Assembly: GCA_038997165.1 (NCBI GenBank) | Contig: JAWBAK010000001.1 | Span: forward strand, 61,926 to 125,925 | Reading direction: 5' to 3' | Length of the DNA: 64,000 nt | Source: Candidatus Aenigmatarchaeota archaeon | GTDB taxonomy: Archaea; Aenigmatarchaeota; Aenigmatarchaeia; CG10238-14; SpSt-28 | Text below: a report on this DNA, generated by a model with database tools, continued | DNA letters: not shown here

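Follow-up and report, generated by a model that had tools for sequence, protein, structure and literature searches.

Membrane-proximal part of the giant protein

The transmembrane (TM) helix that joins the ectodomain of the giant SPEARE-type protein to its cytoplasmic HerA-type ATPase contains highly conserved residues. Across 82 homologues from several phyla, residues 7 to 16 of the helix contain a Thr (89% conserved), a Tyr (94%) and a Pro (98%). A near-invariant Thr-Tyr plus Pro within the membrane is unusual for a simple anchor.

An elastin-like Gly/Ala/Pro/Val linker comes after the Cys-rich module CGNGICEDRFGESNAICPLDC, about 230 aa N-terminal of the helix. [quoted passage not shown] The module and linker could act as a hinge. 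Alternatively, they could be the processing site that is implied by published proteomics, in which the ectodomain and the TM-plus-cytoplasmic portions were found in different size fractions (Hamm 2019, PMC6642349).

Neighboring genes

The coiled-coil partner has three occurrences of a SHOCT-like motif, EG(I/K)IS.E.Y..LK, and a fourth lies in the 1,908-aa surface protein, within its cytoplasmic tail; both proteins are encoded in the operon of the giant gene. This recurrence hints at a binding mode common to the two proteins. A second large surface protein, of 2,542 aa and with PQQ/FG-GAP beta-propellers, is followed by three proteins (173, 689 and 207 aa) that have an N-terminal hydrophobic segment and may be pilin-like. 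N-terminal propellers of the PQQ type have been described in the nanohaloarchaeal giant protein (Reva 2023, PMC10266531).

Features of the window
Feature	Position (nt)	Remarks
Cys-rich module, then elastin-like linker	21617-21811	CGNGICEDRFGESNAICPLDC; Gly/Ala/Pro/Val
TM residues 7-16	22517-22546	
Coiled-coil partner	23686-24918	
Tail of 1,908-aa surface protein	30441-30638	
MinD/ParA-type ATPase	30675-31442 (+)	
K/E-rich coiled-coil gene run	31660-38100	633, 218, 1,045 aa
Protein interrupting the run	34346-34957	203 aa
MinD/ParA-type ATPase	40789-41514 (-)	
Second large surface protein and three downstream proteins	45801-56624	2,542 aa; PQQ/FG-GAP beta-propellers
Lhr-type helicase, complete	56646-59315	DEAD, Helicase_C, WH_Lhr, DEAD_assoc

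Homologous loci in other genomes

Locus L004 (1-11995) carries two paralogues in tandem. One is an 11,780-aa SPEARE-type gene that includes an ATPase of its own; the other, which overlaps it by 4 nt, is a 664-aa mini version that bears a separate signal peptide. Rings mixing giant and mini subunits are conceivable. In L002 and L003 (both 11743-15252), a 549-aa mini family member precedes a 1,169-aa protein with a precomputed Pfam match to SecA_DEAD, a surprising match for an archaeal contig.

The giant gene of some relatives contains an in-frame stop or multiple frame breaks (L025, 8533-8535; L001, 6109-10000), for which assembly errors, decay or recoding could each account. A DPANN-type giant gene is also found in MAGs named Heimdallarchaeota, Halanaerobiaceae bacterium and Methanosarcinales (L037, L080 and L085), labels that likely reflect binning contamination or co-binning of host and symbiont.

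Other genes in the window

The G+C content is just 17 to 20% across the K/E-rich coiled-coil run, whose first gene is shared only with L006, the closest relative. SMC/Rad50-like and apolipoprotein-like matches of these genes were dismissed as noise. Two distinct MinD/ParA-type ATPase genes lie less than 10 kb apart.
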